Assembly: GCA_016719575.1 (NCBI GenBank)
Contig: JADJYV010000008.1
Coordinates: 15,440 to 79,439, forward strand
DNA: 64,000 nt
Source: Pseudobdellovibrionaceae bacterium
GTDB lineage: Bacteria > Bdellovibrionota > Bdellovibrionia > Bdellovibrionales > Bdellovibrionaceae
Direction: 5' to 3'
In this document: positions 3,970-46,674 of the stretch, in pieces
Layout: each line of letters begins with the position of its first letter
How positions within the stretch are numbered: position 1 is the stretch's first letter
The notes under the pieces: model-generated
What the model saw: the letters and a program-made list of their open reading frames with translations, nothing else
What the model was told of the DNA's origin: nothing
Database searches by the model: none
Translations under genes and position numbers: made by a program

Positions 3970-4191
3970 CTATTCACGAATTGATAGTCCAGAAGCCTCC
4001 CCTGGATTTCCGACAGAAGCAGGAGATCTGGATCTTCCTCTTTGAGAATCGCCCGCAGGAGCGTTGATTTTGGCTTGATCCTGACCAGAATCTTCACTGA
4101 TTAGCTTGTCAGAGGTTTCCCATGGTTTTAGCAAAAAGATCATGACTGCCATTACAAACAAAAAAAGAAAAATCTTAATGCTGTTCTTCAA
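3970..4191 (-). CDS. Small single-pass membrane or secreted protein, hypothetical
   Basis: 73 aa with a TTG start preceded by AGGAGG at 8 nt. The N-terminus is hydrophobic (IKIFLFLFVMAVMIFLL), followed by a charged low-complexity tail. Confidence 0.45.
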   Translation of the reverse strand: MKNSIKIFLFLFVMAVMIFLLKPWETSDKLISEDSGQDQAKINAPAGDSQRGRSRSPASVGNPGEASGLSIRE

Positions 4192-4289
4192 GGGGAACTC
4201 CTCCTGTAGCTAGGACACTCCCCTTATTCTATGGAATATATTTTTAATAACAAGACCAGTCCAACCTCAAACTGGCCCGTCGACGGGCT

Positions 4290-4315
4290 AAAAAGAGAGC
4301 CGACAGCTCTCTTTT
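4290..4315 (-). terminator. Rho-independent terminator after actF
   Basis: Minus-strand sense AAAAGAGAGC-tgtcg-GCTCTCTTTTT: a 10-bp stem running into a T-tract, about 35 nt after the actF stop. A second palindrome, ggcccgtcgacgggc, follows at 4274-4288. Confidence 0.55.
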
Positions 4316-4347
4316 GCCGCGTCGCATCCCCAAAAGGAAGGCCGTAC

Positions 4348-5553
4348 CTAATAAGAAACGTGGTGGTGGCTGGCTTCGTGGAGGCGTGGGTCTTTGATGG
4401 CTACGAGGCTGTTTTTGCTGAAGAAATTCAATAGGACTGCTAAAAAGAGGCCCGCAAAACCTAAGAAAATTCCGATTTCCCAGAAGCCGAAGGTCAAATG
4501 GCCTTCAAAAAAGTTCGGGTAAACCATCCAAAAGATATCCACGTATTGCATAACTAAAATAAGGCCTGAGACCATCAAGAGATGGTTCTCGTCTCGCTTT
4601 AAGGACTTTGGCAACAAAGCCAAGAATGGAACGACAAAGCGAAAAATAAACAAAGCTAGAGAAATGCCCATCCAGCCATGCTGAGCTCGCATAATAAAGT
4701 ACTCAGTTTCCTCGGGAATATTCGCGTACCAAATCAACATAAACTGCGAAAATGCAATATAGGCCCAAAAAACAGTAAAGCCCTTCATGAATTTAGCGAG
4801 ATCATGAAGATGATCCTCCGTCACATACCCTTTCACGAAACCAGACCTTTTCATGAAAATTGCAATCGGTATAATAATTGCGAAAAAGGATTGAAACATT
4901 CCTGAAAAACAATAGATACCAAAAATCGTACTGTACCAAGTTGGCAAAAGTGACATTAAAGTATCAACGCTAAAAAGCGAAAAGGTGACGGCAAAAAACA
5001 AAACAAAGCCAATTGAATAGCCAACATTTTTATGGGTTAAACTCTCATCGCCCGTCTTATCTTGTTTCAAAGAATTGCCAACCAAGATCTGCCTAAAAGC
5101 AAGCATTCCAAGACCGAAAACCGCCAGGCGCACAACCAAAAATCCAACATTTAAGTAAGAAGTCTTTGACTGAAGAAGTGCGCTCTCGGCCACTTTATCA
5201 TGATCTGCCCAAGGATAGAGGTACTTGAGTCCCAAGATCAGGATAAAGCTCGTCACAACCATAACAGGAATATAAGAAGTTAAACCTTCAGCGTAACGGC
5301 GTACCGAAACACTCCAACCGGCCTTCACAAGATTTTGAATGGCCGACCAAAAAAGACCGCCAAGTCCCGCGCAGGCAAAAAAGAAAAAAGAAACCAAATA
5401 AGAAGCCCAGATTCGCTCTTGATTCTTCATAAGGCCCGCAGCAAAGGTGATCGCACCGATAGCAATAAAAACATAGGTTAAATTTTTGAGCTTTGGAGAC
5501 GCCTCAAATTTGCCAACATGAAGTTCTGTGTGTGAATGATTTGATGATGCCAT
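4348..5553 (-). CDS. actF: Alternative complex III subunit ActF (NrfD/PsrC-like polytopic membrane subunit)
   Basis: A 401 aa multi-TM protein, the last gene of the actABCDEF-order cluster. Confidence 0.8.
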   Translation of the reverse strand: MASSNHSHTELHVGKFEASPKLKNLTYVFIAIGAITFAAGLMKNQERIWASYLVSFFFFACAGLGGLFWSAIQNLVKAGWSVSVRRYAEGLTSYIPVMVVTSFILILGLKYLYPWADHDKVAESALLQSKTSYLNVGFLVVRLAVFGLGMLAFRQILVGNSLKQDKTGDESLTHKNVGYSIGFVLFFAVTFSLFSVDTLMSLLPTWYSTIFGIYCFSGMFQSFFAIIIPIAIFMKRSGFVKGYVTEDHLHDLAKFMKGFTVFWAYIAFSQFMLIWYANIPEETEYFIMRAQHGWMGISLALFIFRFVVPFLALLPKSLKRDENHLLMVSGLILVMQYVDIFWMVYPNFFEGHLTFGFWEIGIFLGFAGLFLAVLLNFFSKNSLVAIKDPRLHEASHHHVSY

Positions 5554-5562
5554 AATTCCGAC

Positions 5563-6123
5563 CTACTTTGTTTCTTTCTGCAAGAAACGAATATAGTTAA
5601 CTAACTGCCAACGAAATGCCTGAGGAACGTGGGAAGCGTGGGGCCCCATCACTCCCTGACCTTCTGTAATCACATGATAAATATGACCGTCTGTCCAAGT
5701 TTTGATTTTATCCGAAACCAAAGGAGGAGGCTTAAGGGCCATCTTCTGTACAACATTGGAGTCAGGATTCCCTTCCCCCTTCTGGCCATGACAAAGCATG
5801 CACTGCAATTCGAAATACTTTTGTCCTACGATCAAAACATCAGATTCCATTTTGCCAGCAAGTGGATTTTGCAAATCCTTTGACGCGCCTTCCACATTGC
5901 CCTTGAATTTATATGGAACGAATCCAACCGGAGCAGTGTTCTCAGCTGGAACTCTCATTCCCATTTGATGAGGTGACGTCTCATCATAAGACTGCGCTTT
6001 GATCGCAGGAGTCACCATCATGTCCTGCATCAACTCAATATTCGGGCTGTTCCCCTTCGGCCCACATGCGGACAAAGCCAAAGTTGCAGCTGCAATCAAA
6101 ATAATATTTTTTTGACTTCCCAT
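5563..6123 (-). CDS. actE: Alternative complex III subunit ActE (monoheme cytochrome c, predicted lipoprotein)
   Basis: 186 aa with a lipobox (LALSAC) and a single CxxCH motif (CMLCHG). Confidence 0.85.
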   Translation of the reverse strand: MGSQKNIILIAAATLALSACGPKGNSPNIELMQDMMVTPAIKAQSYDETSPHQMGMRVPAENTAPVGFVPYKFKGNVEGASKDLQNPLAGKMESDVLIVGQKYFELQCMLCHGQKGEGNPDSNVVQKMALKPPPLVSDKIKTWTDGHIYHVITEGQGVMGPHASHVPQAFRWQLVNYIRFLQKETK

Positions 6124-6124
6124 A

Positions 6125-6652
6125 TCAGTACTCCGCCACTTTTTTTACTTCGACTGCGCCCCACTCCTTGAACAGTCTCTCAATTTTGACTTCGTCATAC
6201 CCAACATCATTTTGTGGGACGAAAATCGCAAACTTATGTGAGGTCAAATCTGGATCAATAACAGGTGGATCCATTTTTGGCATTTTGGTAACATAAAAAA
6301 GAGCTGCAACAGAACAGAGAGCTGCAAACAGTACAGTTAACTCAAATATGACTGGAATAAAGGCCGGCCAACTAAACATCGGCTTACCACCGACATTGAT
6401 TGGCCAATTCACGGCCGAAGTCCACCACGTCAACCACAAACCAAATAACAAGCCTGTGAGTCCAGCAACAAAAGTCACATATGGAATCCAAGATCTTTTT
6501 ATTCCACAAGCTTCTTCCATCCCATGAACAGGATAAGGGGTGATAGCATCAAATTTAGAGAACCCACTTTCACGGGTTTTTGCGGCAGCAGTAATAACAG
6601 AGTGCTCCTCTGTCCAAATCCCAGCGATACCACCAATACTACGCTTTGCCAT
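6125..6652 (-). CDS. actD: Alternative complex III subunit ActD (DUF3341-type membrane protein)
   Basis: 175 aa containing ...DAITPYPVHGMEEA... and ...GGKPMFSWPAFIPVIFELTVLFAA..., as remembered for ActD. It abuts actC and actE with 1-nt gaps. Confidence 0.85.
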   Translation of the reverse strand: MAKRSIGGIAGIWTEEHSVITAAAKTRESGFSKFDAITPYPVHGMEEACGIKRSWIPYVTFVAGLTGLLFGLWLTWWTSAVNWPINVGGKPMFSWPAFIPVIFELTVLFAALCSVAALFYVTKMPKMDPPVIDPDLTSHKFAIFVPQNDVGYDEVKIERLFKEWGAVEVKKVAEY

Positions 6653-6653
6653 A

Positions 6654-8018
6654 CTAGTGCCCCCCTTTTGAGTTCTCTCGTCCTACAGGCAACACAGGCT
6701 TCACCTCAGCAATTGAAATCGCCGGGAAAAATCTGAGATACAACAAGAACAAAGTTAAGAACATACCGAAAGACCCTACGAGAATCGCTCCATCAAAGAA
6801 TGACCAGGGGTAGTTTCCCCAGTTGGCGGGCAAGAAGTCTCGGTGCAAAGAAGTGATCGTGATCACAAATCGCTCAAACCACATACCAATATTCACAAAG
6901 ATAGAAACCACAAACATCACTGGGATCGATCGGCGGAATTTTTTAAACCAGAACAACTGAGGTATCAGAACGTTACAGCTAATCATTGTCCAATAAGACC
7001 AAGCGTAAGGTCCAAAAGCCCGGCTATTGAAAAACACATATTTTTCATAGGGATTTCCAGAATACCAAGCAATGAAAAATTCTGATCCGTAAGCATAACC
7101 AACCATCAGACCCGTCGCCATGATGATCTTGTTCATCACTTCCATATGATCGATGGTAATGTAGTTTTTAAATTCAGGCACGCCTATGCGAACAAGAGTC
7201 ATCAGTGTAACCACCATCGCAAATCCTGAAAAGATCGCTCCTGCTACAAAGTACGGAGGGAAGATTGTGGTATGCCAGCCTGGCAAACTCGAAACTGCGA
7301 AGTCGAACGAAACGATCGTATGAACCGAAAGAACCAAGGGCGTTGAAAGACCTGCGAGAAGCAAATAAAGCATCTCGTAATGACTCCAATTTCTAGCGGT
7401 GCCTCTCCAGCCCATAGACAGAGCCCCATAAATTGTACGACGCAATTTATTCTTTGCACGATCTTTGATCGTCGCAAAGTCAGGAATTAAACCCACATAC
7501 CAAAATACCATCGATACCGTCGCATAAGTAGAGACCGCAAAAACGTCCCACAAAAGTGGCGAACGGAAATTCACCCACAAAGGACCTCGCTGATTCGGAT
7601 ATGGAAACAACCAGTAATCAAGCCAAGGTCTTCCGGTATGCAAGAGCGGGAAGAGCCCTGCTGTCATAACAGCAAAAACTGTCATAGCTTCGGCCGTGCG
7701 GGCCACCGAAGTTCTCCATTTTTGACGAAACAAAAATAATATCGCAGAAATCAATGTTCCCGCATGGCCAATACCGATCCAGAAAACGAAGGTGATAATC
7801 ATCGTTCCCCAGGCGTTCGGATGATTGACACCAAGAAGTCCCATCCCTGTCGAAATGATCGTGCCCATTATAATCACATAGAAAATCAACAGACCCAGAG
7901 CTCCAGTAAATAACCCCAACCACCCCTTTGATGGATAAGCTTCAATCGGAGCACAGATATCATCCGTAATGTCCTTAAGACTCTTATCACCTAAGACTAA
8001 TTTATTACGCGTGATCAT
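6654..8018 (-). CDS. actC: Alternative complex III subunit ActC (NrfD/PsrC-like quinol-interacting membrane subunit)
   Basis: A polytopic membrane protein. The likely start is the ATG at 8018, which overlaps the actB stop by 14 nt. The ORF-track start at 8111 lies inside actB. Confidence 0.85.
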
Positions 8019-11788: not shown

Positions 11789-13420
11789 CTATTTTTTCCG
11801 CACAAGCCAAGCGTACAACACTAACAAAAAGTGAGCAGCAATAAAAGCAGAGACATATTCAACTCCACCGGCGCCAAATCCATAAGAGTGAAGCCCCGCA
11901 CCAAGAACGAAATTCACTCCATACCACGCCATGATTACAAGACTAAATGTGATGACTCCGCTTGCAATCATGCCAAAATTTTTGAGCCAGCCGCCAAGCC
12001 GCCCATGCAGCACCGCAAGATAACCAAGCAGAGCGATCAGGGCCCAAGTTTCTTTTGGATCCCAACCCCAAAACCTTCCCCAAGAGTAGTCCGCCCAAAT
12101 TCCACCTAAGATAATTCCGGGCGCCAAAAAGACCACACCAATTTGCATAGCTCGATACACAGAGGTGGTGATTGCTTTGATCTTGTCCTGATGCTTTTCT
12201 TCGCCTCGAATATAATAAATAAGACCGATGTCACCCAAAACAAAAGCCAAAAAGAAAGCCGCATAACTGATAGTGATTGTCATCACGTGAACGGTTAACC
12301 AATAGTTACTGCGCAAAACCGGCTCTAGAGGAATGAGCGAAGGGTCTAAAACGGCAGGCGCCGTGTCCGCAACAATCAACGAAACCATAGCCCCCAGAGT
12401 TCCGGCCAAAAGAATAAAGCGAAACTTATAAATCCATTCTAAGATGGCCGAAAAAAGCAAAGCTCCCCAAGACATCCAAACGACGGTTTCATACATATTG
12501 GTAACAGGAGCGCGATCCATCAAATACATGCGAATCACAAAGCCAAAGGTGTGAAGGAGAAATCCCACCGAGGCAAAGGCCCAGGCGGCTTTCATCCATG
12601 TTATTTTATTCATCGACCACACCATCAATAAGACCAATGAAGAAAGGAGATAAAAAATGTAGGCCCAGCGGAAGGGGTGAAAATGATTATAAAAAACTTC
12701 AACATTCACCTTCGTATCGACACTGTAAAGGCCTGGGTTGTTCTTTCTGGCGACTTCGCGGAAGGCAAGGACCGCAGAGTCCATCTCGCTCGCAAGTTGT
12801 TTTAATTCAGACGCTGAAACATGACTTGCCACTCCGCCGATATAGCCAATAAAACTTTTCGTCAAAACCGCAAAGGCCGTTTGCTGCTCGCCTTCGAACT
12901 GCACCACAGACAACCATACAGTCCCTTCTTTGGGAGGAATCAGTCGCAACATATTTCCGCCTGCTATTTCTCGAAAGACAGAAAGTTGATCCTCGAGACG
13001 CTGCAGCGCTTGAAAATAAGGTGTCAGTTTTTCTTTGGTTTCACGTTTAGATTGCAGATCCTGTATCAAACTCCCAAACTGAGGGCTCGAAAAGATTTCA
13101 TCTCCAGAAAAGTAACGTTCGACCGCTGGAAGTCCCAGCGCTTTCAGAACCTCATGATTGCGAACTTCGAAAATTTTCTTGGTTTGCCAAGATTGAGGGC
13201 TCAGCATCCAAGTCATAACAATTTCTGCAGCTCCCCGTCCCTCAAATTTCGATTTGCCATGAACAATTTCGAGCATTTCTTTTGAAAAAGTATCGTAGGG
13301 CTTAATGCGTCCGGCATCCTGAACGGGCAATTTTAAGAGCTCGTCTCCAGCCGCTGCAAAAGCGCCTTTAAATACCATTATAGACAAAAGCAGAACCAGT
13401 ATTAGCTGCAAGCGTTTCAT
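11789..13420 (-). CDS. ccsA: System II cytochrome c biogenesis protein CcsA/ResC
   Basis: 543 aa polytopic protein with the Trp-rich heme-handling motif WADYSWGRFWGWDPKETW. It overlaps ccsB by 4 nt. Confidence 0.88.
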   Translation of the reverse strand: MKRLQLILVLLLSIMVFKGAFAAAGDELLKLPVQDAGRIKPYDTFSKEMLEIVHGKSKFEGRGAAEIVMTWMLSPQSWQTKKIFEVRNHEVLKALGLPAVERYFSGDEIFSSPQFGSLIQDLQSKRETKEKLTPYFQALQRLEDQLSVFREIAGGNMLRLIPPKEGTVWLSVVQFEGEQQTAFAVLTKSFIGYIGGVASHVSASELKQLASEMDSAVLAFREVARKNNPGLYSVDTKVNVEVFYNHFHPFRWAYIFYLLSSLVLLMVWSMNKITWMKAAWAFASVGFLLHTFGFVIRMYLMDRAPVTNMYETVVWMSWGALLFSAILEWIYKFRFILLAGTLGAMVSLIVADTAPAVLDPSLIPLEPVLRSNYWLTVHVMTITISYAAFFLAFVLGDIGLIYYIRGEEKHQDKIKAITTSVYRAMQIGVVFLAPGIILGGIWADYSWGRFWGWDPKETWALIALLGYLAVLHGRLGGWLKNFGMIASGVITFSLVIMAWYGVNFVLGAGLHSYGFGAGGVEYVSAFIAAHFLLVLYAWLVRKK

Positions 13421-25062: not shown

Positions 25063-26287
25063 ATGCCAATTTTCGAGTACAAGGGCCTTTCCCGCGACGG
25101 ACGAAATGTCAAAGGAACTATCGACGCTGAAAATCTGCGTTCGGCCCGCACTCGTTTAAAAAAGGACAATATTTTCGTCGTAGAAATTCGCGACAAAAAA
25201 AAGGGAACGAGCTCGGGTGCCGGCAAAAAGAAAGCGGCACGCAAGGGTAAAGTCAGCGTGCAAGAGCTCTCGTTGATGACTCGCCAGCTCGCGGTGCTGG
25301 TGAAGGCCAACATCCCCCCTTGTTGATTCTCTGATGGCTGTTTCAGAGCAGGTTGAAGATCCCGTTCTGGCTGAAGCCATTGCCGATTGTAAAAATATGG
25401 TCAACGAGGGCAGTCCCTTCTATAAAGCTCTCAGCAAGTATCCAAATCTTTTCGATAAGATTTATATTTCAATGGTCGAAGCTGGAGAAATGTCAGGCAG
25501 CTTAGATGTTATTTTGGTGCGCCTCGCTGAATTTACTGAAGCCGCTGCCGAGCTTCGCTCGAAGGTTAGCAGCGCTATGACCTACCCAATCATCATGTTG
25601 GTAGTCACCTTTGGCTTACTCTCGTTGATGTTTGTTTTTGTAATTCCTAAAATGGTGGTGGTCTTTGAATCCGCTCCCAACTTGCAACTCCCGTGGTACA
25701 CCCTTGCCTTGATAAACATCAGTACTTTTATGGTAAATTATTGGTATCTTATTTTCGGCAGCATGGTCATCGCCTATCTGATTTTTAACAACTGGAAGAA
25801 TTCTCCGACGGGGTCTCAGCAGTGGGACAGCATAGCGCTCACACTGCCAATCGCAGGCCCTGTTGTTCGCATGGTCGCTGTCTCTCGCTTTACCCGGACA
25901 CTTTCTACCTTGCTTACGGGCGGAGTCCCCATGCTCAACGCCCTCGATATCGTTCGCAATGTTGTCAACAACCATGTTCTTGCTCTCGCCATAGACGACG
26001 CCCGCAGTAATATTAGCGAGGGGGAATCTATCGCAGGGCCCCTTAAGAAGTCCGGACAATTTCCACCGATCGTGATTCACATGGTCAACATTGGAGAAAA
26101 AACGGGAGAGCTCGAAAATATGCTAAGTCAAGTTTCGGATGCTTACGACTTTCAGGTCAAAAACAAAGTCGACGGTCTCACTGGACTTATGGGCCCCGTG
26201 GTTATCGTCATTATGGGTCTTGTTATTGCGGTGATCGTCTTCTCTGTGATGATTCCGATGTTTGACATGACAAGTGCCTTTGGCTAA
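25063..26287 (+). pseudogene. gspF: Type II secretion system platform protein GspF, interrupted by a +1 frameshift in a C6 run
   Basis: ORF 25063-25326 (MPIFEYKGLSRDGRNVKG...LSLMTRQLAVLVKANIPPC*) and ORF 25334-26287 are the N- and C-parts of one GspF. Deleting one C from the run at 25314-25319 gives the continuous reading ...LVKANIPLVDSLMAVSEQVEDP..., about 407 aa. Confidence 0.88.
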
Positions 26288-33895: not shown

Positions 33896-34318
33896 ATGAT
33901 GAATAGGCATAGAATTCCCTCTATGCCTCGTTTTTTTATACTTTTATATCTAGCCAGCCTATTACCCGCCTGTTCGGTTTATAGCTCGGCTGGCCGCAAA
34001 CAATTCGAAGAAAAAGCACCAAGCAATATCCTCCAGCCCTTTGCTTTTCTTGGCTGTCGCGAGCTTAGTTTCAGCGAGACCTGGCTAAAAGAAGAATTCC
34101 CTTCGACAACAAGTGAGCTGATAGACATGACTCCCAACTACGAGGTATGGCTTAGGCTGGTTAAAAACTCCTCGGTAGAAATCACTGTCTTATCAAGGCA
34201 AGACCCTAGCGACCAGAGCAGTGGCACTCAGAGCTGCCTTTATGAGTTTTCTTCAACTGCGGAGTGGAAGTCTCACAAGAAATCATTTCTTTCAGATTTA
34301 TCTAACTCTCTTTACTAA
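33896..34318 (+). CDS. Hypothetical lipoprotein
   Basis: 140 aa with a signal peptide carrying a lipobox (LASLLPAC). Confidence 0.5.
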   Translation: MMNRHRIPSMPRFFILLYLASLLPACSVYSSAGRKQFEEKAPSNILQPFAFLGCRELSFSETWLKEEFPSTTSELIDMTPNYEVWLRLVKNSSVEITVLSRQDPSDQSSGTQSCLYEFSSTAEWKSHKKSFLSDLSNSLY

Positions 34319-34401
34319 CTCGACCGAAGTCAGTAGCTTCGTTGCCATGGCTCTATTTATGTTGGACACTGTAGGCAAGTTTTCAACGGGAGCTTTCACG
34401 C

Positions 34402-35292
34402 ATGAAAAGTTTAAAGAAGTCCTTAGTCTTTCTTATTCTTGTTATATCCAATTCGGTTTTTGCAGCTTCCGTCACTGCTGTCAAAAATAATAAAATTGCA
34501 ATTAATCTTGAAGGACAAACCGCCTCACCAGGGACTGAGTTTTTTGTCGTCAATAAAAGCAGTAAAAAAGTTGCCATCGTCCAAATCACCCAAGTAAAGG
34601 GCGATAAAGCTATTGCAGAAATTAAAAAAGGCTCAGCACAAGTAGGATACTCTCTTCAGCCACGCAGTGGCGGGACCAGTTCTGGAGCTGCTACTGCTAG
34701 CACTGATAGCTACTATGATCAGAAGCTCAACTCTCGGGCACACACTGGAAACTCCTTCGGTCTTGTGGGTGGATATCTAATGAATTCCATGACGGCAACA
34801 TTCACCGGGGGACCTCTTGGGGCTCCCTACCCCGTTACGGCAAGCATGTCTGGATCTGGCTTTGGCGCTTTAGGTTTTTATGATTACGCGCTTTCCCCGA
34901 GATTTATCCTACGGGGTATGGGCGGTGTTGAGCAGTTTGATGTCGCCGGATCCATCTCAACGGCAGACTGCTCCGCAACATCAACGTGTAACGTTAAGTT
35001 GATGTATCTCTCGATGTATGGATACGGTCGCTACAATGTCACCGAGGGTGATTACAAGTGGTGGGTTGGGGGTGGCTACGGCTATCTCTATGCCCTGAGC
35101 AAAGCCAGTACCGTTCTAAGAGCAGAACAAATTTCGGCCAACCAGATTTTTGTCTTCTCAACAGGTATAGATATCCGTCTCTCCACAAAAAGCTACGTCC
35201 CCGTCTCGATAGAGTACGGCATGTTCCCGACTTCTGACTCCGTAAAAGCTTCGATCATTTATCTCCGTGCGGGCTATGCTTGGAATCTTTAA
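34402..35292 (+). CDS. Putative outer-membrane beta-barrel protein
   Basis: 296 aa with signal peptide MKSLKKSLVFLILVISNSVFA/AS. The C-terminal half alternates aromatic and Gly residues (GGGYGYLYAL..., YLRAGYAWNL). Confidence 0.6.
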   Translation: MKSLKKSLVFLILVISNSVFAASVTAVKNNKIAINLEGQTASPGTEFFVVNKSSKKVAIVQITQVKGDKAIAEIKKGSAQVGYSLQPRSGGTSSGAATASTDSYYDQKLNSRAHTGNSFGLVGGYLMNSMTATFTGGPLGAPYPVTASMSGSGFGALGFYDYALSPRFILRGMGGVEQFDVAGSISTADCSATSTCNVKLMYLSMYGYGRYNVTEGDYKWWVGGGYGYLYALSKASTVLRAEQISANQIFVFSTGIDIRLSTKSYVPVSIEYGMFPTSDSVKASIIYLRAGYAWNL

Positions 35293-35576
35293 TCGCAAAC
35301 GGTTTTTTTCGCTTGATAAGCTCTGCTCAAATAGCTCGGCAATTCTGAGAGTTTGATAACTTTATCGATGAGGGGTACTTTAGGGCAGGCCTCATCATAA
35401 GGTTTAGGATTCGGCTTATGATGATAACGATCTCGGTGTGCCATTTGGAGGCGAACATGAGGGTTCATACCAAAATCGCCAGCGACCACAACGTAAGCAC
35501 CTTGAAGAGAACGCTCTGACGAAAATATCAACATCGGCGGTTTAAATTCACTTTTGCCTTCTACAACTTGCACCAT
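35289..35576 (-). CDS. Hypothetical protein, probably the C-terminal part of the preceding frameshifted gene
   Basis: This 95 aa ORF overlaps the previous one by 16 nt. Its frame stays open upstream through ...FEYPPPPGVGNEWHAYNTIST, before its first Met. Confidence 0.35.
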   Translation of the reverse strand: MVQVVEGKSEFKPPMLIFSSERSLQGAYVVVAGDFGMNPHVRLQMAHRDRYHHKPNPKPYDEACPKVPLIDKVIKLSELPSYLSRAYQAKKTVCD

Positions 35577-36154
35577 AGTTGAAATAGTGTTGTAAGCATG
35601 CCACTCATTCCCAACTCCCGGCGGGGGAGGATATTCAAATTGACGGATGGCATTTCAAACAATGAAAAATCAAACTTGGTCTTATCAAGAACCTTTTGAT
35701 CCAAAAGATAATAGACATTTTCATCTGAAATTCTGAAAACGCGGTAGAATCCGCCTTTCTCTGTCACCAAGGCAATTCTAAAGGAATAGCGATTTAGATT
35801 TTTACTTTCCAAAAATTGCATGTCGGGCACAACAAAAACGCCATTCTTATCTAATTTCCCTCTAAACATTTTCTGTCCACAGTCTATGGTTGAATAGTTC
35901 GGTTCTCCACCCCAAATCTGACCGAGAGAAGGTGAGCTGGTGGGCTGAATACAGCGAAGGCTTACTTCTACCAAAAGATCTTCACTCGAAAAAGAATTTG
36001 AATAGTTATGAATAACAACTTGAAATGATTTTTTAGCAACTTTGCCCTGGCGTTCATTTTCAAACGAATTCAAACTGTTGATCTCTTCTGAAAAACATTG
36101 CAGAGAAAACAGTCCAATTGCAAAGAACAACATATACAATTTCATACAAAACAT
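35561..36154 (-). CDS. Hypothetical secreted protein, probably the N-terminal part of a frameshifted gene
   Basis: 197 aa with a signal peptide (MKLYMLFFAIGLFSLQCFS). The adjacent ORF's frame is open back to a C5 run, so the two may be a single gene (see findings). Confidence 0.5.
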   Translation of the reverse strand: MFCMKLYMLFFAIGLFSLQCFSEEINSLNSFENERQGKVAKKSFQVVIHNYSNSFSSEDLLVEVSLRCIQPTSSPSLGQIWGGEPNYSTIDCGQKMFRGKLDKNGVFVVPDMQFLESKNLNRYSFRIALVTEKGGFYRVFRISDENVYYLLDQKVLDKTKFDFSLFEMPSVNLNILPRRELGMSGMLTTLFQLWCKL

Positions 36155-36514
36155 TTCCCTTTTTGGTTTTTAAGTAAAATCAATCCACCTGATTGACAAT
36201 GCTATACCTATGCCACCTTGAAACTAATTTATTTTAAGATGAGGCCACCGTGAGTGCCTAAGTTCTTTACATGTGATGCTCGTGTTTGTCTAACCTTTCA
36301 AAATATCATGAATTTTCTACCTCGATATGGCTTCGATTTTTGAGGGAATCTGGGCCAAGAATTGCTTACCGCCCAAAACTTTGACAGCGTAGACGTAATA
36401 ATTTCGTTTCTATCCTGGTCTCCGGATTGCTGATCTAGTCGTTATGGATTCCGTAAAATTGGAATAAAGGGAAATCAATCCCACCAAATTCACGGCCTTA
36501 CAGGAGACACTGTT

Positions 36515-37713
36515 ATGACTATTTATAGACTTGTTCTAGCAGCATCACTTTTAGCCGCCCCTTTTTCGACATTTGCCTCTGCACAATTGAAATGTCACGA
36601 GGCTTTCCAGGTTGGGAATAAAAGCTATAAAGATTACCTTCGACCGGTCCCAGAGGATGATTTTGTTGTTTATATGCGGTCCAATCCTGCCGGAAGTCTT
36701 GCGTGGTTCAATGAAAAGATTATGCCGAATTTAGCTTCTGCTGAATTGAATTCCATTGCGAAGAAACAAGGTTACATTGGCGGCGATGTTAAGCCGGACA
36801 ACGTAGATATGGTTAGCACAAAGGCAAAAAATCCATCGCTGTGATCGATTTGGATGACGGAGGTGTTGGACCCTTTGTTGCCGATTTTTTTCATTCCTTG
36901 GTATACAACCGGGTTTGGCCGGTTTCAATCAAGTTCAAAGATGCAGTGGATGCCTATCAAGATGGATTAAAAGGAAAAAAACTTCGTGATATCGTTGATC
37001 TTAATGATATTTGGAAAGAACGCAGCGATGAGAAAATAAACCACGAAAAAATGGAAAAGTCCGAAAAGGATTTCTTAGAAATGCTGAAACTAACTTCCGT
37101 GAAGGAGGCCGAACCCAATGTTCGGGCTCTTTTCGAGCGCAACAAAAAACTCATTCTGAAAAAAGCCGAATCATTTGGTGACATTGTGCATTTTGGCGTC
37201 CGGGTTAAAACGAGTGGCGGCAGCATGGGTGCTCCCCGATTTTCATTCTTAGTAAAAGATTCCAATAAGGAACTTAAAATTATTGAATTTAAATTCCAGC
37301 CTAGCCCGGCGGTCGCTGCCCTCGGAACCGCCCAACCCCCCCACACCGAAAGAATAAAGAATTTAATAAGGCATTATAAACCTCAACACGAGACTGGAAA
37401 TATTCTCGGTGTATTAGATACAAAACAAGACGGAACTTTTCTTATCCGTGTCAGGGTGCCATCTAATTTTGATGCTGCAAGCATTCCTAAATCTCAAAAA
37501 GACACCGAGGCCTATGACTCTTATATACGCCACATGTTCCATATGATGGGGAATGCTCACGCTCGTCAAAGTCCCGAGTATGTAAGAGAATTCAACGACA
37601 ATCTTCATAAGATTGAAGGCGAACTTGAAGCCCTCGTCGAAGAGCAAGTAAATCTATTTAGATCGGAATTCGAAGCTTCAAAAGCCAAAGCTCTTGTGGG
37701 CCCCGCTCGTTAA
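36515..37713 (+). pseudogene. DUF2252-like secreted protein split by a frameshift
   Basis: ORF 36515-36844 ends ...YIGGDVKPDNVDMVSTKAKNPSL*. ORF 36841-37713 begins (V)IDLDDGGVGPFVADFFHSL. Together they resemble the remembered DUF2252 core GD.H..N.G...(n)...FD.NDFDE...GP..WD. Adding one A to the A6 run at 36826-36831 fuses them into about 399 aa. Confidence 0.55.
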
Positions 37714-37798
37714 TTTTTATTAAAATTAACGCTACGGGCTCTTCGTATCGAAAATTTAGTTTGGAATATAAGTAAGCGACTGGTAAGAGTTGATTTAT

Positions 37799-38324
37799 AT
37801 GGATTCACACTACTACAAGGTTATGAAAGCCCGCGAAGACATTAAAGAAACTGGAAGTCGATTGTATTTTGCATACTCTGGAGTTCTTGATCGAAATGCC
37901 TTTGAACAATGGCGACAAGAACATAGCTATCACTTTTTTGAACTTCCAGAGGGCGACATCGCGGTTGCACGCGATTATGATTTGATTTTTGATTTTCCGT
38001 CCCGATGGTGGGGCGGCAGAGTGGCCGGGCTCGTCCAGAAAAAGGGATCCTCCGTCTTTGGCCGCCTTTATGAAGTCCCTGTTGAAAACTGGCCTGTCGT
38101 TCAACACAAAGAGGGTGTCATCACCGGCATGTCCATAGAACTTAAAATAAAAAATTGAAGTAGAGGGCAAAGAGGTTGAGGCCTTCGCCTTTACCACATC
38201 ACCTGAGCGAGCAAACACCACTGGTCCCGTTAGCGAGCGTTACATTGAAGCATTGATCGCTGGCGCAAAACAAGCCGGACTTCCAGAAGATTACGTCAAT
38301 AGTTTACGCTCAAAGGCAGTTTAA
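37799..38324 (+). pseudogene. Gamma-glutamylcyclotransferase/AIG2-like protein split by a frameshift
   Basis: The ORF ending at 38158 contains LYFAYSGVL...GRLYEVPVENWPVVQHKEG. The next frame continues (I)EVEGKEVEAFAFTTSPERANTTGPVSERYIEALIAGAKQAGLPEDYVNSLRSKAV*, ending at 38324. Removing one A from the A6 run at 38149-38154 joins them. The start is uncertain (37790, 37799 or 37823). Confidence 0.6.
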
Positions 38325-38918
38325 GGCTTGGTCTCGCAATGAGTTTGTACCACGTGACTTAAGATACTGAGTCCCATCCCTATTTTATGTAAAAATGAAT
38401 GATTATTTGGAACAAAGTGAAACTCTGGATGCTGCGACCATAAAGACTTTAATTTTTGGTCAAGGGCAATGGCTTCACCGAGAGTTTCGCTACGAACGGG
38501 ATTTCCTCCTTCGATAGAAATACCTCCGACTGCAGCTGTTTCGAAAAAAACAACAGAATCGTACCTATTGAGTTCTGCTTCAAGGGTTGTTCCTATATGC
38601 GAAAAACTCCTCCGCAGGGCCGGGCCAATAGGCAGCGCCATCAACAGTACCTCGGTCACATAAAAGGATTCGACTTTTAAACTCTTCAGCTTTAATGGTT
38701 TCCAAATTTCTTTGCACATGAAAAATCGCTTGTTGGATGGAGCGACGGATAGTTTTATCTTCAGAGCGAGGAAAGCCTCCGGCATACAAAATCGTGGCCG
38801 CTTCGGGCACCACAACGACTTTTTCTCCGAGCTCACGTCGAAACAAATCTGCTGCCGTCGTTTTGCCACCTCCAGGCCCTCCGGTTAAAACGACTCGATG
38901 ACAATGGTTTTCTGACAT
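38321..38918 (-). pseudogene. AAA_28-type P-loop NTPase split by a frameshift
   Basis: The N-part, from ATG 38918 with a GGAG Shine-Dalgarno, reads MSENHCHRVVLTGGPGGGKTT...CDRGTVDGAAYWPGPAEEFF. The C-part, in another frame, reads SHIGTTLEAELNRYDSVVFFETAAV...FVPNNHSFLHKI... and ends at 38321. Removing one base from the A5 run at 38602-38606 (T5 in gene sense) joins them into about 198 aa. Confidence 0.6.
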
Positions 38919-38946
38919 AAGCACTCCTTACAGAATTTAGATCCCT

Positions 38947-41169
38947 CTAATGGAGAACGCGTGTAACCCCTAAGATACCTTTGATTTTTTGTAACTCATA
39001 GATCGCATTGTTGAGCTGAGTGGTGTCTTTGACACTGACCTCGAAATTGCAAATCGCTTTTTTATCTTTGGTCGTGCGGATTTGTGCAGACTCAATATTT
39101 ATTCCTTGGACAGAGAACACTTCGGACATTGATTTCAACAAACCTGGCACGTCGTGACTGACGACCCTCACCCGTACCATTCTCTCTTGTCCCTCTTTCG
39201 CCTGCGCTCCTGTCCAGGCCACATCGACTTTGCGAAGTTGATCCATCTCAAAGGCCTTCGGGCAATCGGCTCTGTGAACAGTGATCCCACGACCTCGCGA
39301 AATAAAACCGCTAATGGAGTCTCCAGGAATAGGATTGCAACACTTTGCAAAGTGAACCAAGACATCATCCATACCATCCACGCTGATCAGCGAATTGCTC
39401 TTGCGTGTTTTTTGCGCAGCGGCCTTAACTACTTTTTCCATAAAAGTAGCTTCTTCCGTTTTCGCGGCTTCTTTTTCGGCAGATCTTGGGGACACTTTGT
39501 TCACCAAGTGGCGTGGCTCTAATCGACCATAGCCGACTTTAACATAGAGCTCATCGATATCCCGCAAACCATTCTCTTTCAGAAACAACTCGAACTCAGG
39601 ACCCTTCAATTGCTTCGCGGCTGCCATTCCAAATTTTCGAAACTCTTTTTCGACCAAATCCTTACCAAGGGTGAGCGAACGACGACGCTGTTCCTCTTTG
39701 ACATACTGACGGATTTTCTGTTTTGCCTTATTTGTGACAACGAGCTTTAACCAATCTTTTGTTGGCACCTGAGTTTTTGAAGTCACAATCTCAATGCTGT
39801 CTCCGTTTTGCAGCTGGTACCGCAAGGGAACCATCTTGCCATTGACTCGCGCGCCAACACACTGATTCCCCAGCTGCGTATGCACGGCGTACGCAAAATC
39901 GAGTGGGCTTGCTCCCTCTGGAAACTCGCGAACATCTCCCTTGGGGGTAAAAACATAAATCTCGCTCTCAAACAAATCTGTCTTAACGCTATCCAAAAAC
40001 TCATCTGCACTCTTTACTTGCTGGTGTGAGCTCACTAAGTCGCGAAGCCAATTTGCCTGCTGAAACTCACTGTCATCATCAACCTTACCGCGCTCCTTGT
40101 ATTTCCAGTGGGCCGCAATCCCTCGTTCTGCTACTAAGTGCATTTCTCGAGTTCGAATCTGAATTTCTATTCGCTCTCCTCCGGGGCCAATCACCGTGGT
40201 ATGAAGGGATTGATAATTATTCGCCTTTGGCATCGCAATGAAATCTTTAAAACGACCCGGAATTGGCTTCCACAAAGAGTGAACAAGACCCAAAACGCCG
40301 TAACACTCAGCCACAGAATCCACGATCACCCTAAAAGCAAGAACATCGTAGAGCTGCTCATAATCAATACTGCGTGATTGCATTTTTTTGTAAATCGACC
40401 ACAAGTGCTTTGATCTTCCAAAGACATCAAACTTAAAATTTGCCTTTTGCAATTCGTGGCTAATTTGCAATTTTACGTCGTCGATATAACGACTGCGCTC
40501 GCCTTCGGTCTTTCGAACTTTCTGCACCAGCTGATAATACATATCCGGTCGAAAGTAACGGAAACACAGATCTTCAAGCTCGATCTTCAAGGAACTGATA
40601 CCCATTCGGCCTGCAAGTGGGCAATAGATTTCTAAGGTTTCAAGAGCAATGCGTTCTTGCTTCTCGAAGGGCATAAAGTTCATCGTGCGCATGTTGTGCA
40701 AACGATCACATAACTTTACTAACAAAACTCGCACATCCCTACCCATAGCAACGATCATCTTACGGACGTTCTCCCCCTGCTTCTCGTTGCTATTCTTAAA
40801 CTTCATCTGCGAGATTTTGGTAACCCCGTCCACAAGTTGAGCAATAGGCTCACCAAATTCACGACGGACGTCCTCAAGAGTCGCATGCGTATCCTCAACC
40901 GTGTCATGAAGAAGCCCCGTTGCGATCGAATCTAAATCAAGGTGTAAGTCCGCTAAAATTCCGGCGACCGAAAGTGGATGAGAAATATAAGGCTCGCCCG
41001 AACGACGGATTTGCCCCTCATGAGCCCGCTCGGAAAACAAATAAGCCTTTTCAATAATTTTTAAATCAGCCTGAGGAAAATAAGCTCTAATCTTATTGAG
41101 CAAATCCTCTAATGTTTTTGTGGTCCCCTGGGATAACCCGGTCTCCACTTGTAGGCTGTTTTCGGACAT
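38947..41169 (-). CDS. rel: Bifunctional (p)ppGpp synthetase/hydrolase (RelA/SpoT homologue)
   Basis: 740 aa with an HD hydrolase domain (HPLSVAGILA...LLHDTVEDT), a synthetase domain (...YQSLHTTV...IEIQIRT), and TGS and ACT C-terminal regions. Confidence 0.95.
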   Translation of the reverse strand: MSENSLQVETGLSQGTTKTLEDLLNKIRAYFPQADLKIIEKAYLFSERAHEGQIRRSGEPYISHPLSVAGILADLHLDLDSIATGLLHDTVEDTHATLEDVRREFGEPIAQLVDGVTKISQMKFKNSNEKQGENVRKMIVAMGRDVRVLLVKLCDRLHNMRTMNFMPFEKQERIALETLEIYCPLAGRMGISSLKIELEDLCFRYFRPDMYYQLVQKVRKTEGERSRYIDDVKLQISHELQKANFKFDVFGRSKHLWSIYKKMQSRSIDYEQLYDVLAFRVIVDSVAECYGVLGLVHSLWKPIPGRFKDFIAMPKANNYQSLHTTVIGPGGERIEIQIRTREMHLVAERGIAAHWKYKERGKVDDDSEFQQANWLRDLVSSHQQVKSADEFLDSVKTDLFESEIYVFTPKGDVREFPEGASPLDFAYAVHTQLGNQCVGARVNGKMVPLRYQLQNGDSIEIVTSKTQVPTKDWLKLVVTNKAKQKIRQYVKEEQRRRSLTLGKDLVEKEFRKFGMAAAKQLKGPEFELFLKENGLRDIDELYVKVGYGRLEPRHLVNKVSPRSAEKEAAKTEEATFMEKVVKAAAQKTRKSNSLISVDGMDDVLVHFAKCCNPIPGDSISGFISRGRGITVHRADCPKAFEMDQLRKVDVAWTGAQAKEGQERMVRVRVVSHDVPGLLKSMSEVFSVQGINIESAQIRTTKDKKAICNFEVSVKDTTQLNNAIYELQKIKGILGVTRVLH

Positions 41170-45795: not shown

Positions 45796-46620
45796 CTAAA
45801 AAGGAAAACCAAAAGTGATGCCAAAGCCCCAATACTTGGTCTTTTCCCAATAGTACTTCGTATTAAAACGCAGTGCGTATTTCCCAGTTCTAAAAGCCAA
45901 ACCCAAATCAAAGACAGCCCCCAGTGACATATCATCCAAGCTGTAATTGATCTCTTTGCCAGACTCGGTCAATCCGACTTCGAAGTGGGAGTATTTAAAC
46001 ATGGGTCCAAACCCGTAGGTCACCATATGCCACTTGCTTTGAGGCATTGCCGTTTCAAAAATAAAGTCCGTAATAAAAATCCAACCGCTCGCTGCACGCC
46101 CCGTTGCACTTTGATAATAATCCGGAGCCCCAGAGCGAAATAGAAACTCCGCATCAGTCCTAAAATCACCGGAAAACATAGTGTTAGGTCCCGCCACTTT
46201 AAATCCATAAAATGGCATGTTTTGCGAACGAACCGCCCCCATCGAGTTTTCATTGTAGGTCAAGTAAGAGACGACAGGCCCACGGTATCGCGAAGAATAA
46301 AATGGTTTCAATGGACGAGCTGGAGCCTCGGATTTTTTTTCAGACTTTGAGGCTGGGGTGTTTTCGCCTTTCGCGGTCTTTCCAGGCCCCGCCTGCCCAA
46401 CGGGCGAAGCCACCGTTGATAAACGAACGTCATTATCCGCGATCCATCCAGTGACGCCGGTTTTGATTCTGATTTTATAAAAAGGACCTCTTTTTTTAAT
46501 GGATATGGCATAGGACTGGCCGGCCTTCAGCTCCGCTAAGATTGGGGCATCAAAATCAGCGTCTTTATAAACCAAGGCTCCTTGATTAACAATTTGCGCC
46601 TGCTGAGACTGTGCCCACAA
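45796..46620 (-). CDS. SH3b-domain plus beta-barrel outer-membrane protein; the true start is probably ATG 46673, displaced by a homopolymer frameshift
   Basis: SH3_3-like segment GQSYAISIKKRGPFYKIRIKTGVTGWIADNDV; C-terminal OMP signature ...WGFGITFGFPF. The in-frame upstream sequence KIKIISFLIVFFCGWSLWA/QSQ is a signal peptide lacking its Met (see findings). Confidence 0.7.
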   Translation of the reverse strand: MWAQSQQAQIVNQGALVYKDADFDAPILAELKAGQSYAISIKKRGPFYKIRIKTGVTGWIADNDVRLSTVASPVGQAGPGKTAKGENTPASKSEKKSEAPARPLKPFYSSRYRGPVVSYLTYNENSMGAVRSQNMPFYGFKVAGPNTMFSGDFRTDAEFLFRSGAPDYYQSATGRAASGWIFITDFIFETAMPQSKWHMVTYGFGPMFKYSHFEVGLTESGKEINYSLDDMSLGAVFDLGLAFRTGKYALRFNTKYYWEKTKYWGFGITFGFPF

Positions 46621-46674
46621 ACTCCATCCACAAAAAAATACGATTAGAAATGAGATGATTTTTATTTTTTCATG

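Follow-up and report, generated by a model that had tools for sequence, protein, structure and literature searches.

Private one- and two-nucleotide frameshifts in four adjacent genes beside rel in a Bdellovibrio lineage are probably consensus errors of a draft assembly

The 64,000-nucleotide stretch analysed here (the window) carries four consecutive genes at 35289..38946, flanked by an OMP-like gene and rel, whose stops are at 35292 and 38947, respectively. The initial annotation had reported that all four are frameshifted within 35289-38924. Three-frame translation of this interval showed that each gene is indeed divided between two frames, split by an indel of one or two nucleotides. The first gene, G1 (35289..36145, minus strand), encodes a secreted protein of unknown family, for which no match was found in Pfam or NCBIfam; when intact it measures 285 aa, and here it is split into ORFs of 194/197 aa and 95 aa. 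G2 (36515..37713, plus strand) encodes a DUF2252/APH-like protein of 399 aa when intact, which is present as ORFs of 109 and 290 aa. Its assignment to DUF2252, as originally proposed, stands in that the match passes the cut-off (24.3 versus 22.3 bits), but the match is marginal and APH is equally good. G3 (37799..38324, plus strand) encodes an AIG2-like or gamma-glutamyl-cyclotransferase-like protein (174 aa intact) and G4 (38321..38918, minus strand) an AAA_28 P-loop protein (199 aa intact). The breaks in G2, G3 and G4 are spanned by Pfam matches, namely a weak match to APH, AIG2_2 (2e-18) and AAA_28 (5e-21), respectively.

The six homopolymer runs in which the frameshifts had been placed (25314-25319, 35623-35627, 36826-36831, 38149-38154, 38602-38606 and 46665-46670) are all present at these positions. 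Insertions and deletions both occur, as had been stated, with C5 to C6 and A5 to A6 on one side and G6 to G5 and A4 to A3 on the other. In G1, one nucleotide has been lost from a G run at 35622-27 (G5 at 35623-35627 in the window), which reads G6 in L095, the assembly with the closest haplotype, and GGAGGG in the assembly L081. The shift in G2 does not lie in the A6 run at 36826-36831, which does not vary in length among the assemblies, but in a short A run 7-12 nt upstream, where one A has been lost at 36817-36819 (A4 in all relatives, A3 in the window). When this base is restored, G2 is exactly P0013, which lies on a Logan contig; a scan of JGI metagenome contigs with intact G2 yielded nothing. 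In G3, the run at 38149-38154 is A6 instead of the A5 of all relatives, a gain of one A, and with the single base restored G3 is exactly P0016, which occurs in Logan contigs (three on record, of which L096 and L097 were examined). The lesion in G4 is a loss of two nucleotides at 38600/38601, changing GAGAAAAA to GAAAAA compared to L095 (GAGA5 to GA5) and A7 to A5 compared to L081. It thus adjoins the A5 run at 38602-38606 to which it had been assigned, but is not a pure homopolymer change relative to L095.

The remaining two of the six frameshifts also break genes. At 25314-25319, one added C (C5 in L089, C6 in the window) disrupts gspF (25063..26287, plus strand), which encodes protein F of the type II secretion system (T2SS) and is 407 aa long in L089. 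The second affects the start of a secreted protein (45796..46673, minus strand; 292 aa in L092) whose match to SH3_3 is weak and does not reach the Pfam cut-off. One base has been lost at 46665-46670; read on the gene strand, codons 2-3 now hold A6 instead of A7, and the gene begins ATG AAA AAA TAA, with a stop right behind the third codon. This removes the start codon and signal peptide and leaves an ORF of 274 aa that begins with TTG. Both lesions sit in stretches that are otherwise 99.75-99.8% identical to the compared sequences.

Window positions 7867-61566 (about 54 kb) were compared with public assemblies that are 99.2-99.8% identical. For the four genes, ten assemblies made independently from different runs (L081-L088, L095 and L097) were available, representing at least two haplotype groups; a full-text search for the SRA run numbers, meant to reveal the type of sample, gave no hits; all four genes are covered by L081-L084 and L095, the gspF site by one assembly and the site at 46665 by four. 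L095 differs from the window at 64 positions in 17,100 nt. Over the whole compared span, the length differences amounted to exactly six indel events, all private to the window and all changes of 1-2 nt in short homopolymers or other low-complexity runs. The run length at each site was uniform across the other assemblies (4-10 assemblies). In the ten near-identical assemblies every covered gene of G1-G4 is intact, and the orthologues are single ORFs of 285, 399, 174 and 199 aa with no conserved frameshift; G1, which is hypervariable among strains, has 285 aa in L081-L084 and L095. All records of the window's broken pieces (109, 290, 194 and 95 aa) come from one and the same NCBI contig. An exact protein look-up returned no record for Rel, the TruB-like protein (303 aa) and RimP (183 aa) of the window, while other window proteins were matched. 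No nonsense mutations, larger deletions or IS elements were found among the lesions in the 54 kb compared, which consist solely of 1-2 nt indels.

The four genes had been described as an accessory stretch, and this is partly supported. The three nearest species-level genomes, L001-L003, lack the 3.65 kb at this site, and in L001 about 22 nt separate the stop of rel from that of the OMP-like gene. In addition, when the four restored proteins were searched by tblastn in 80 species-level loci surrounding rel, no match was obtained, indicating absence from the nearest species, which therefore offer no orthologues for comparison. On the other hand, G2, G3 and G4 are intact in the same place beside rel in a more distant relative, in which G2 is 56% identical and G3 and G4 have the same lengths. 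For the P0002 locus, the comparison rests on gene lengths and gene order. The GC content is 0.395-0.436 over 35-38 kb compared to a window norm of about 0.42-0.50, and no tRNA, significant flanking repeats or mobility genes were found at the stretch. The genes also lie within a strain-variable tract (34100..40700) that takes in the 3′ half of rel and diverges by 1-6.6% from the L081 haplotype, compared to 0.1-0.3% in the flanks.

The initial annotation had called the distribution of the frameshifts very uneven, and the statistics agree. Four of the six indels fall in 3.6 kb, which is 6.8% of the compared length, and the probability of at least four doing so is 2.8e-4 by length or 4.5e-4 by the count of runs of at least 4 nt. 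The indels are thus not scattered in proportion to error-prone runs. By genes, four of four are broken in the stretch versus two of 48 elsewhere (an approximate count from gene tables; Fisher P = 5.5e-5). The long genes that had been listed as intact (infB, pnp, mutL, rel, thrS, actB and gspD) are so despite 112 runs of at least 5 nt. A higher homopolymer density was rejected as the cause of the clustering, since the stretch holds 32 of the 454 runs of at least 5 nt (7.0%). None of the ten longest runs in the compared span (8-9 nt) is wrong; the lesions are found in runs of 4-7 nt.

The substitutions in the four genes show purifying selection, and selection is not relaxed. dN/dS was 0.22 for G1, 0.27 for G2, 0.24 for G3 and 0.03 for G4, compared to 0.03 for rel, and all 12 substitutions between G4 of the window and that of L081 are at third codon positions. 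Five substitutions in these genes set the window apart from both L081 and L095, four of them synonymous and one non-synonymous. In a three-way alignment, the window branch carries 12 substitutions and 4 indel events (about 0.07% divergence), whereas the branches of L095 and L081 carry 51 and 149 substitutions, respectively, and no indels. The ratio of indels to substitutions is therefore 4:12 in the window versus 0:200 on the other two branches (Fisher P = 2e-5). In mutation-accumulation studies the spontaneous ratio is about 0.1-0.3. Of the five substitutions in the four-gene stretch that are strictly window-private, three are no more than 20 nt away from a private indel (P about 9e-4), as expected if the consensus is locally poor; most of these neighbouring substitutions are synonymous, which suggests real changes rather than errors. 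A mosaic or chimeric consensus was considered from the three-way pattern and set aside, because the classes in which the window agrees with L081 or with L095 are private changes of L095 and L081, respectively, and so are no sign of chimerism on their own.

Three biological explanations of the frameshifts were weighed. Relaxed selection on a decaying island, one of the two causes originally offered, would be a long-term decay of horizontally acquired accessory DNA with an island-wide pseudogene trend. It would agree with the missing stretch in L001-L003 and with a GC content slightly below that of the flanks. However, the covered genes are intact in ten assemblies of at least two haplotype groups, G2-G4 are intact in the relative with the 56% identical G2, dN/dS is 0.03-0.27, private substitutions are synonymous 4:1, other types of lesion are lacking and neither tRNA, flanking repeats nor mobility genes were found. 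Independent disruptions of the four genes in sister genomes, which decay should have left, were not seen in any relative. Intact orthologues, purifying selection and an indel excess private to the window together refute island-wide decay, which is now a very remote prospect. Functional frameshifts, whether as phase-variable contingency tracts that happened to be OFF or as programmed slippage of the ribosome or of transcription, also seem extremely improbable to us. The lesions do lie in mononucleotide or dinucleotide runs, and as in contingency loci a change of tract length toggles the frame and one affected gene, G1, encodes a strain-hypervariable secreted protein. The tracts are short (3-7 nt) though, much shorter than is typical of such loci, and they keep an in-frame length throughout ten population-level assemblies with no tract-length polymorphism. 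Moreover, the orthologues are single-frame, so there is no conserved recoding site, and a simultaneous OFF state in four adjacent unrelated genes is improbable. In-frame orthologues and invariant tracts led us to reject both phase variation and programmed frameshifting.

The indels may also be real, very recent and private to the strain, an explanation that we consider unlikely but for which there is some room. One hit would have inactivated a linked module beside rel, after which further hits were neutral and slippage proceeded fast; the lesions in gspF and the 292-aa protein would then be recent losses in their own right, and the lineage may have a high indel rate. If this module alone were dispensable, selection would give just such clustering (four of four genes versus two of 48), and absence of the stretch from the nearest species indicates that the genus can do without it. 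G2, G3 and G4 occur together in another species and so may be one functional unit, and every event is of the slippage type in short repeats. In these respects the window resembles known recent slippage pseudogenes in dispensable genes, which likewise affect short repeats in mostly accessory genes whose sister orthologues are intact. Unlike such cases, each of four adjacent genes carries one lesion and the branch counts only 12 substitutions over 17 kb, nonsense mutations, deletions and IS elements are lacking, and the private substitutions are mostly synonymous. The absence of relaxed selection (four synonymous to one non-synonymous; 12 of 12 third-position changes in G4) also speaks against it, and 4:12 is far above both the 0:200 of the sister branches and spontaneous indel to substitution ratios. 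Furthermore, the lesions are seen in no other assembly, mutL of the window is intact, and a broken gspF amid an intact T2SS operon would be unexpected for a viable predator. In its fullest form, which seems quite unlikely to us, a conserved three-gene module beside rel (G2 with a DUF2252/APH-like kinase fold, G3 and G4) and a hypervariable secreted protein would have been silenced gene by gene, by slippage and quickly, in one Bdellovibrio strain, inside a recombination-prone strain-variable tract.

The best explanation, to which we assign a probability of roughly 0.7, is that the six frameshifts are consensus errors of 1-2 nt left over in the draft assembly that supplied the window, through an NCBI contig of 126,299 bp, and not mutations of the organism. 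A low-quality assembly patch had been the other cause originally offered, and it fits best with private 1-2 nt indels in low-complexity runs and the ratios of 4:12 and 0:200. Consensus errors are likelier than gene decay because the indels are private to one assembly and the genes are intact in ten near-identical ones; G1-G4 are probably intact in the organism, with 285, 399, 174 and 199 aa. Homopolymer indels that fragment gene calls have been documented for incompletely polished long-read assemblies and MAGs (PMC9262707). The window resembles incompletely polished long-read, 454 or Ion Torrent assemblies, the target of the IDEEL test (PMC9262707), in having both insertions and deletions of 1-2 nt in short runs, private to one assembly, that split conserved ORFs with no signature of evolutionary decay. 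It differs from them in that the indels cluster (four of six in 6.8%), the longest runs of 8-9 nt are correct and one event removes two nucleotides in a GAGA context; the window's indels, moreover, are known here from assemblies rather than reads.

Several observations go against consensus error. Correct runs of 8-9 nt beside wrong runs of 4-7 nt are unlike raw miscalling on nanopore or 454 platforms. The G4 lesion, a loss of two nucleotides, is not purely homopolymeric compared to the closest haplotype, and the mostly synonymous private substitutions near the indels suggest that these substitutions are real. Random read errors should not cluster and the homopolymer density is not raised, so consensus error needs a local cause, either coverage or strain mixture. 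We infer that read or consensus error is the cause and that strain heterogeneity or local coverage lies behind the clustering. The errors may have gathered in the 3.6 kb because these lie inside the one tract where co-circulating strains differ by 1-7% instead of about 0.2%. There, the consensus would be backed by fewer reads of the correct haplotype, and polishing with mixed reads would be at its worst.

If the indels are real, they would point to local indel hypermutation, linked for instance to recombination, or to strong selection in favour of losing the module, and an unusually fast module-wide inactivation beside rel would be of moderate interest. If they are artefacts, at least eight fragment proteins and the broken gspF in the source record probably do not exist, and residual indel errors can gather where strains vary and take on the look of a ‘decaying island’. 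As about 11% of the window genes are affected, the whole assembly would then call for polishing or caution before claims on pseudogenes, loss of T2SS or gene content are made for this Bdellovibrio lineage.

All six homopolymer runs named by the initial annotation were present in the window where it had placed them. Both the ORF list and three-frame translation confirmed that the four adjacent genes it had reported as split, G1 to G4 (35289-38924, here called the island), are each divided between two frames. These genes are located between an OMP-like gene (34402-35292) and rel (38947-41169). G1 (35289-36145, minus strand) encodes a secreted protein of no known family, while the product of G2 (36515 onward, plus strand) has a kinase-like fold and matches DUF2252 (24.3 bits, cut-off 22.3) and APH (24.6 bits). 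G3 (plus strand) and G4 (minus strand, ending at 38918) match AIG2_2 (2e-18) and AAA_28 (5e-21), respectively, and both Pfam matches continue uninterrupted over the frameshift points.

Orthologues were retrieved by a protein search with frame-restored G2. This identified P0001, an intact G2 orthologue of 399 aa with 99% identity, whose contigs (L081-L088) derive from eight different runs and have the same gene order as the window. Wherever covered, G1, G2, G3 and G4 are intact in these contigs, with lengths of 285, 399, 174 and 199 aa. All four are likewise intact on L095, the contig with the closest haplotype (carrying P0013; run SRR26992862), which is separated from the window by 64 differences in 17,100 nt, with only two in G1; G3 and G4 are also intact on L097, from a different run. 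The closest haplotypes are represented in runs SRR26992862, SRR26992860, SRR26992859, SRR26978870 and SRR33541897. With a single base restored, the window's own alleles of G2 and G3 were found verbatim elsewhere by exact look-up (P0013 and P0016). The fragments of 109, 290, 194 and 95 aa, on the other hand, have a single NCBI contig (126,299 bp) as their only recorded source.

Compared to L095, the window has G5 instead of G6 in G1 (35622-35627), A3 instead of A4 in G2 (36817-36819), A6 instead of A5 in G3 (38149-38154) and a 2-nt loss in G4 (38600/38601, GAGAAAAA to GAAAAA). The G2 lesion had been assigned to an A6 run; this was displaced by about 10 nt, and the A6 is unchanged relative to L095. 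Added contigs widened the comparison to 4186-61566 (identity 99.2-99.8%). Six indel events, at the six annotated sites, were the sole length differences from the near-identical assemblies in 7867-61566, and no indel was found in 4186-7830. Outside the island, a change from C5 to C6 at 25314-25319 splits gspF (25063-26287), which encodes 407 aa in L089, the one comparison assembly covering this site. The remaining T2SS operon (gspD, E, G-N) is intact around it. The sixth event affects a 292-aa secreted protein (45796-46673, minus strand; its match to SH3_3 is weak and falls short of the Pfam cut-off): the run at 46665 is one base shorter, reading ATG AAA AAA TAA instead of ATG AAA AAA ATA as in relatives, and this 1-nt loss in codons 2-3 leaves the protein without start codon and signal peptide. 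Gene callers give a 274-aa TTG-start ORF for this gene in the window. The identical call is made on L081 despite its intact run, and start-site calls are thus inconsistent between assemblies.

The uneven distribution that had been noted was indeed non-random. Just 6.8% of the length compared contains four of the six events (P = 2.8e-4, or 4.5e-4 when weighted by the number of runs of at least 4 nt), and broken genes make up 4/4 in the island versus 2/48 elsewhere (P = 5.5e-5, with an approximate gene count). Homopolymer density does not account for this clustering. As had been observed for long intact genes, eight long housekeeping genes with 112 runs of at least 5 nt were all untouched. Three of the five strictly window-private island substitutions are found no more than 20 nt from a private indel (P ~9e-4), and no such association was seen at 25314 or 46665. 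The three (35642G, 38140A and 38594T) are 6-20 nt from the indels; two are synonymous and one is M109I in G4. They may reflect either poor consensus quality at these spots or complex mutational events.

The island lies in a strain-variable tract (34100-40700). Divergence from the second haplotype, that of L081, is 0.1-0.3% in the flanks, and differences per kb from 34 to 40 kb are 9, 50, 12, 14, 21, 20 and 8. G1 differs by 6.6% of nucleotides and 26 aa changes between the window/L095 and L081 haplotypes, and the 3′ half of rel by 2.2%, nearly all at synonymous sites. The tract, G1 in particular, has the appearance of an allele imported by recombination, or else of a secreted protein that is diversifying. 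The substitutions relative to L081 are biological and not errors: dN/dS values are 0.22, 0.27, 0.24 and 0.03 for G1 to G4 and 0.03 for rel, and 12/12 G4 differences are at third codon positions. In a three-way alignment, the L081 and L095 branches carry 149 and 51 substitutions, respectively, with 0 indel events, whereas the window branch carries 12 substitutions and 4 indel events (Fisher P = 2e-5). Four of five island-gene substitutions setting the window apart from both are synonymous, one of them (38113) common to the window and L097. The genes thus remained under purifying selection essentially up to the present.

Taken together, the four frameshifts are most probably an assembly-error patch and not a biological feature. 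We assign a probability of about 0.7 to the source draft assembly having retained errors in its consensus. This would account for all six lesions being private and of a uniform 1-2 nt type, for their occurrence also in gspF and a start-codon region, for the lack of relaxed selection and for the extreme indel-to-substitution ratio. In long-read assemblies and MAGs, the fragmentation of gene calls by indels in homopolymers is documented (PMC9262707). Against consensus error, all of the ten longest runs compared (8-9 nt) are correct, and one lesion does not consist purely of a change in homopolymer length. The clustering would also require a local cause; the obvious candidate is the island's position in the sole tract with 1-7% divergence between co-circulating haplotypes, in which the right haplotype would have the least read support and polishing would be least effective.

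Very recent pseudogenisation, private to the window's strain, would explain the clustering through selection. We consider it unlikely, since each of four neighbouring genes would have to be hit along a branch of only 0.07% divergence, where private substitutions are synonymous-biased, and this is hard to obtain under the spontaneous indel-to-substitution ratios of ~0.1-0.3 found in mutation-accumulation studies. The small remaining probability is shared by phase variation or recoding and by long-term decay of the island, both of which the invariant, in-frame, intact orthologues contradict. The initial observation is accurate and non-random, and island-wide decay is refuted.

Placed by its Rel sequence, the window belongs to Bdellovibrio/Pseudobdellovibrionaceae. 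Rel identity is ~90% to the closest genomes at species level, L001 (Bdellovibrio sp. HCB337), L002 and L003, in which gene order is conserved on either side of the island. None of 80 species-level loci matched any of the four proteins, and in L001 only ~22 nt separate the OMP-like gene stop from the rel stop, indicating that the 3.65 kb are specific, at this position, to the window's species. In the MAG L002, ~800 bp (12214-13015) lie between rel and the OMP-like gene, where L001 and L003 have ~22 nt; these ~800 bp showed no tblastn similarity to G1-G4. No tRNA, meaningful flanking repeats or mobility genes were found, and the GC content of the island is modestly below that of the flanks. In a more distant relative with a 56%-identical G2 (P0002 locus), G2 (390 aa), G3 (174 aa) and G4 (199 aa) are intact and G1 is missing. 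The trio occupies the same place, between the OMP-like gene and rel and directly downstream of rel. Judged from these comparisons, G2-G3-G4 is a conserved module and not a decaying one. The trio (DUF2252/APH-like, AIG2-like and AAA_28 P-loop proteins) may form a functional module linked to rel. As for the split gspF, it would make the T2SS appear defective in the source record.
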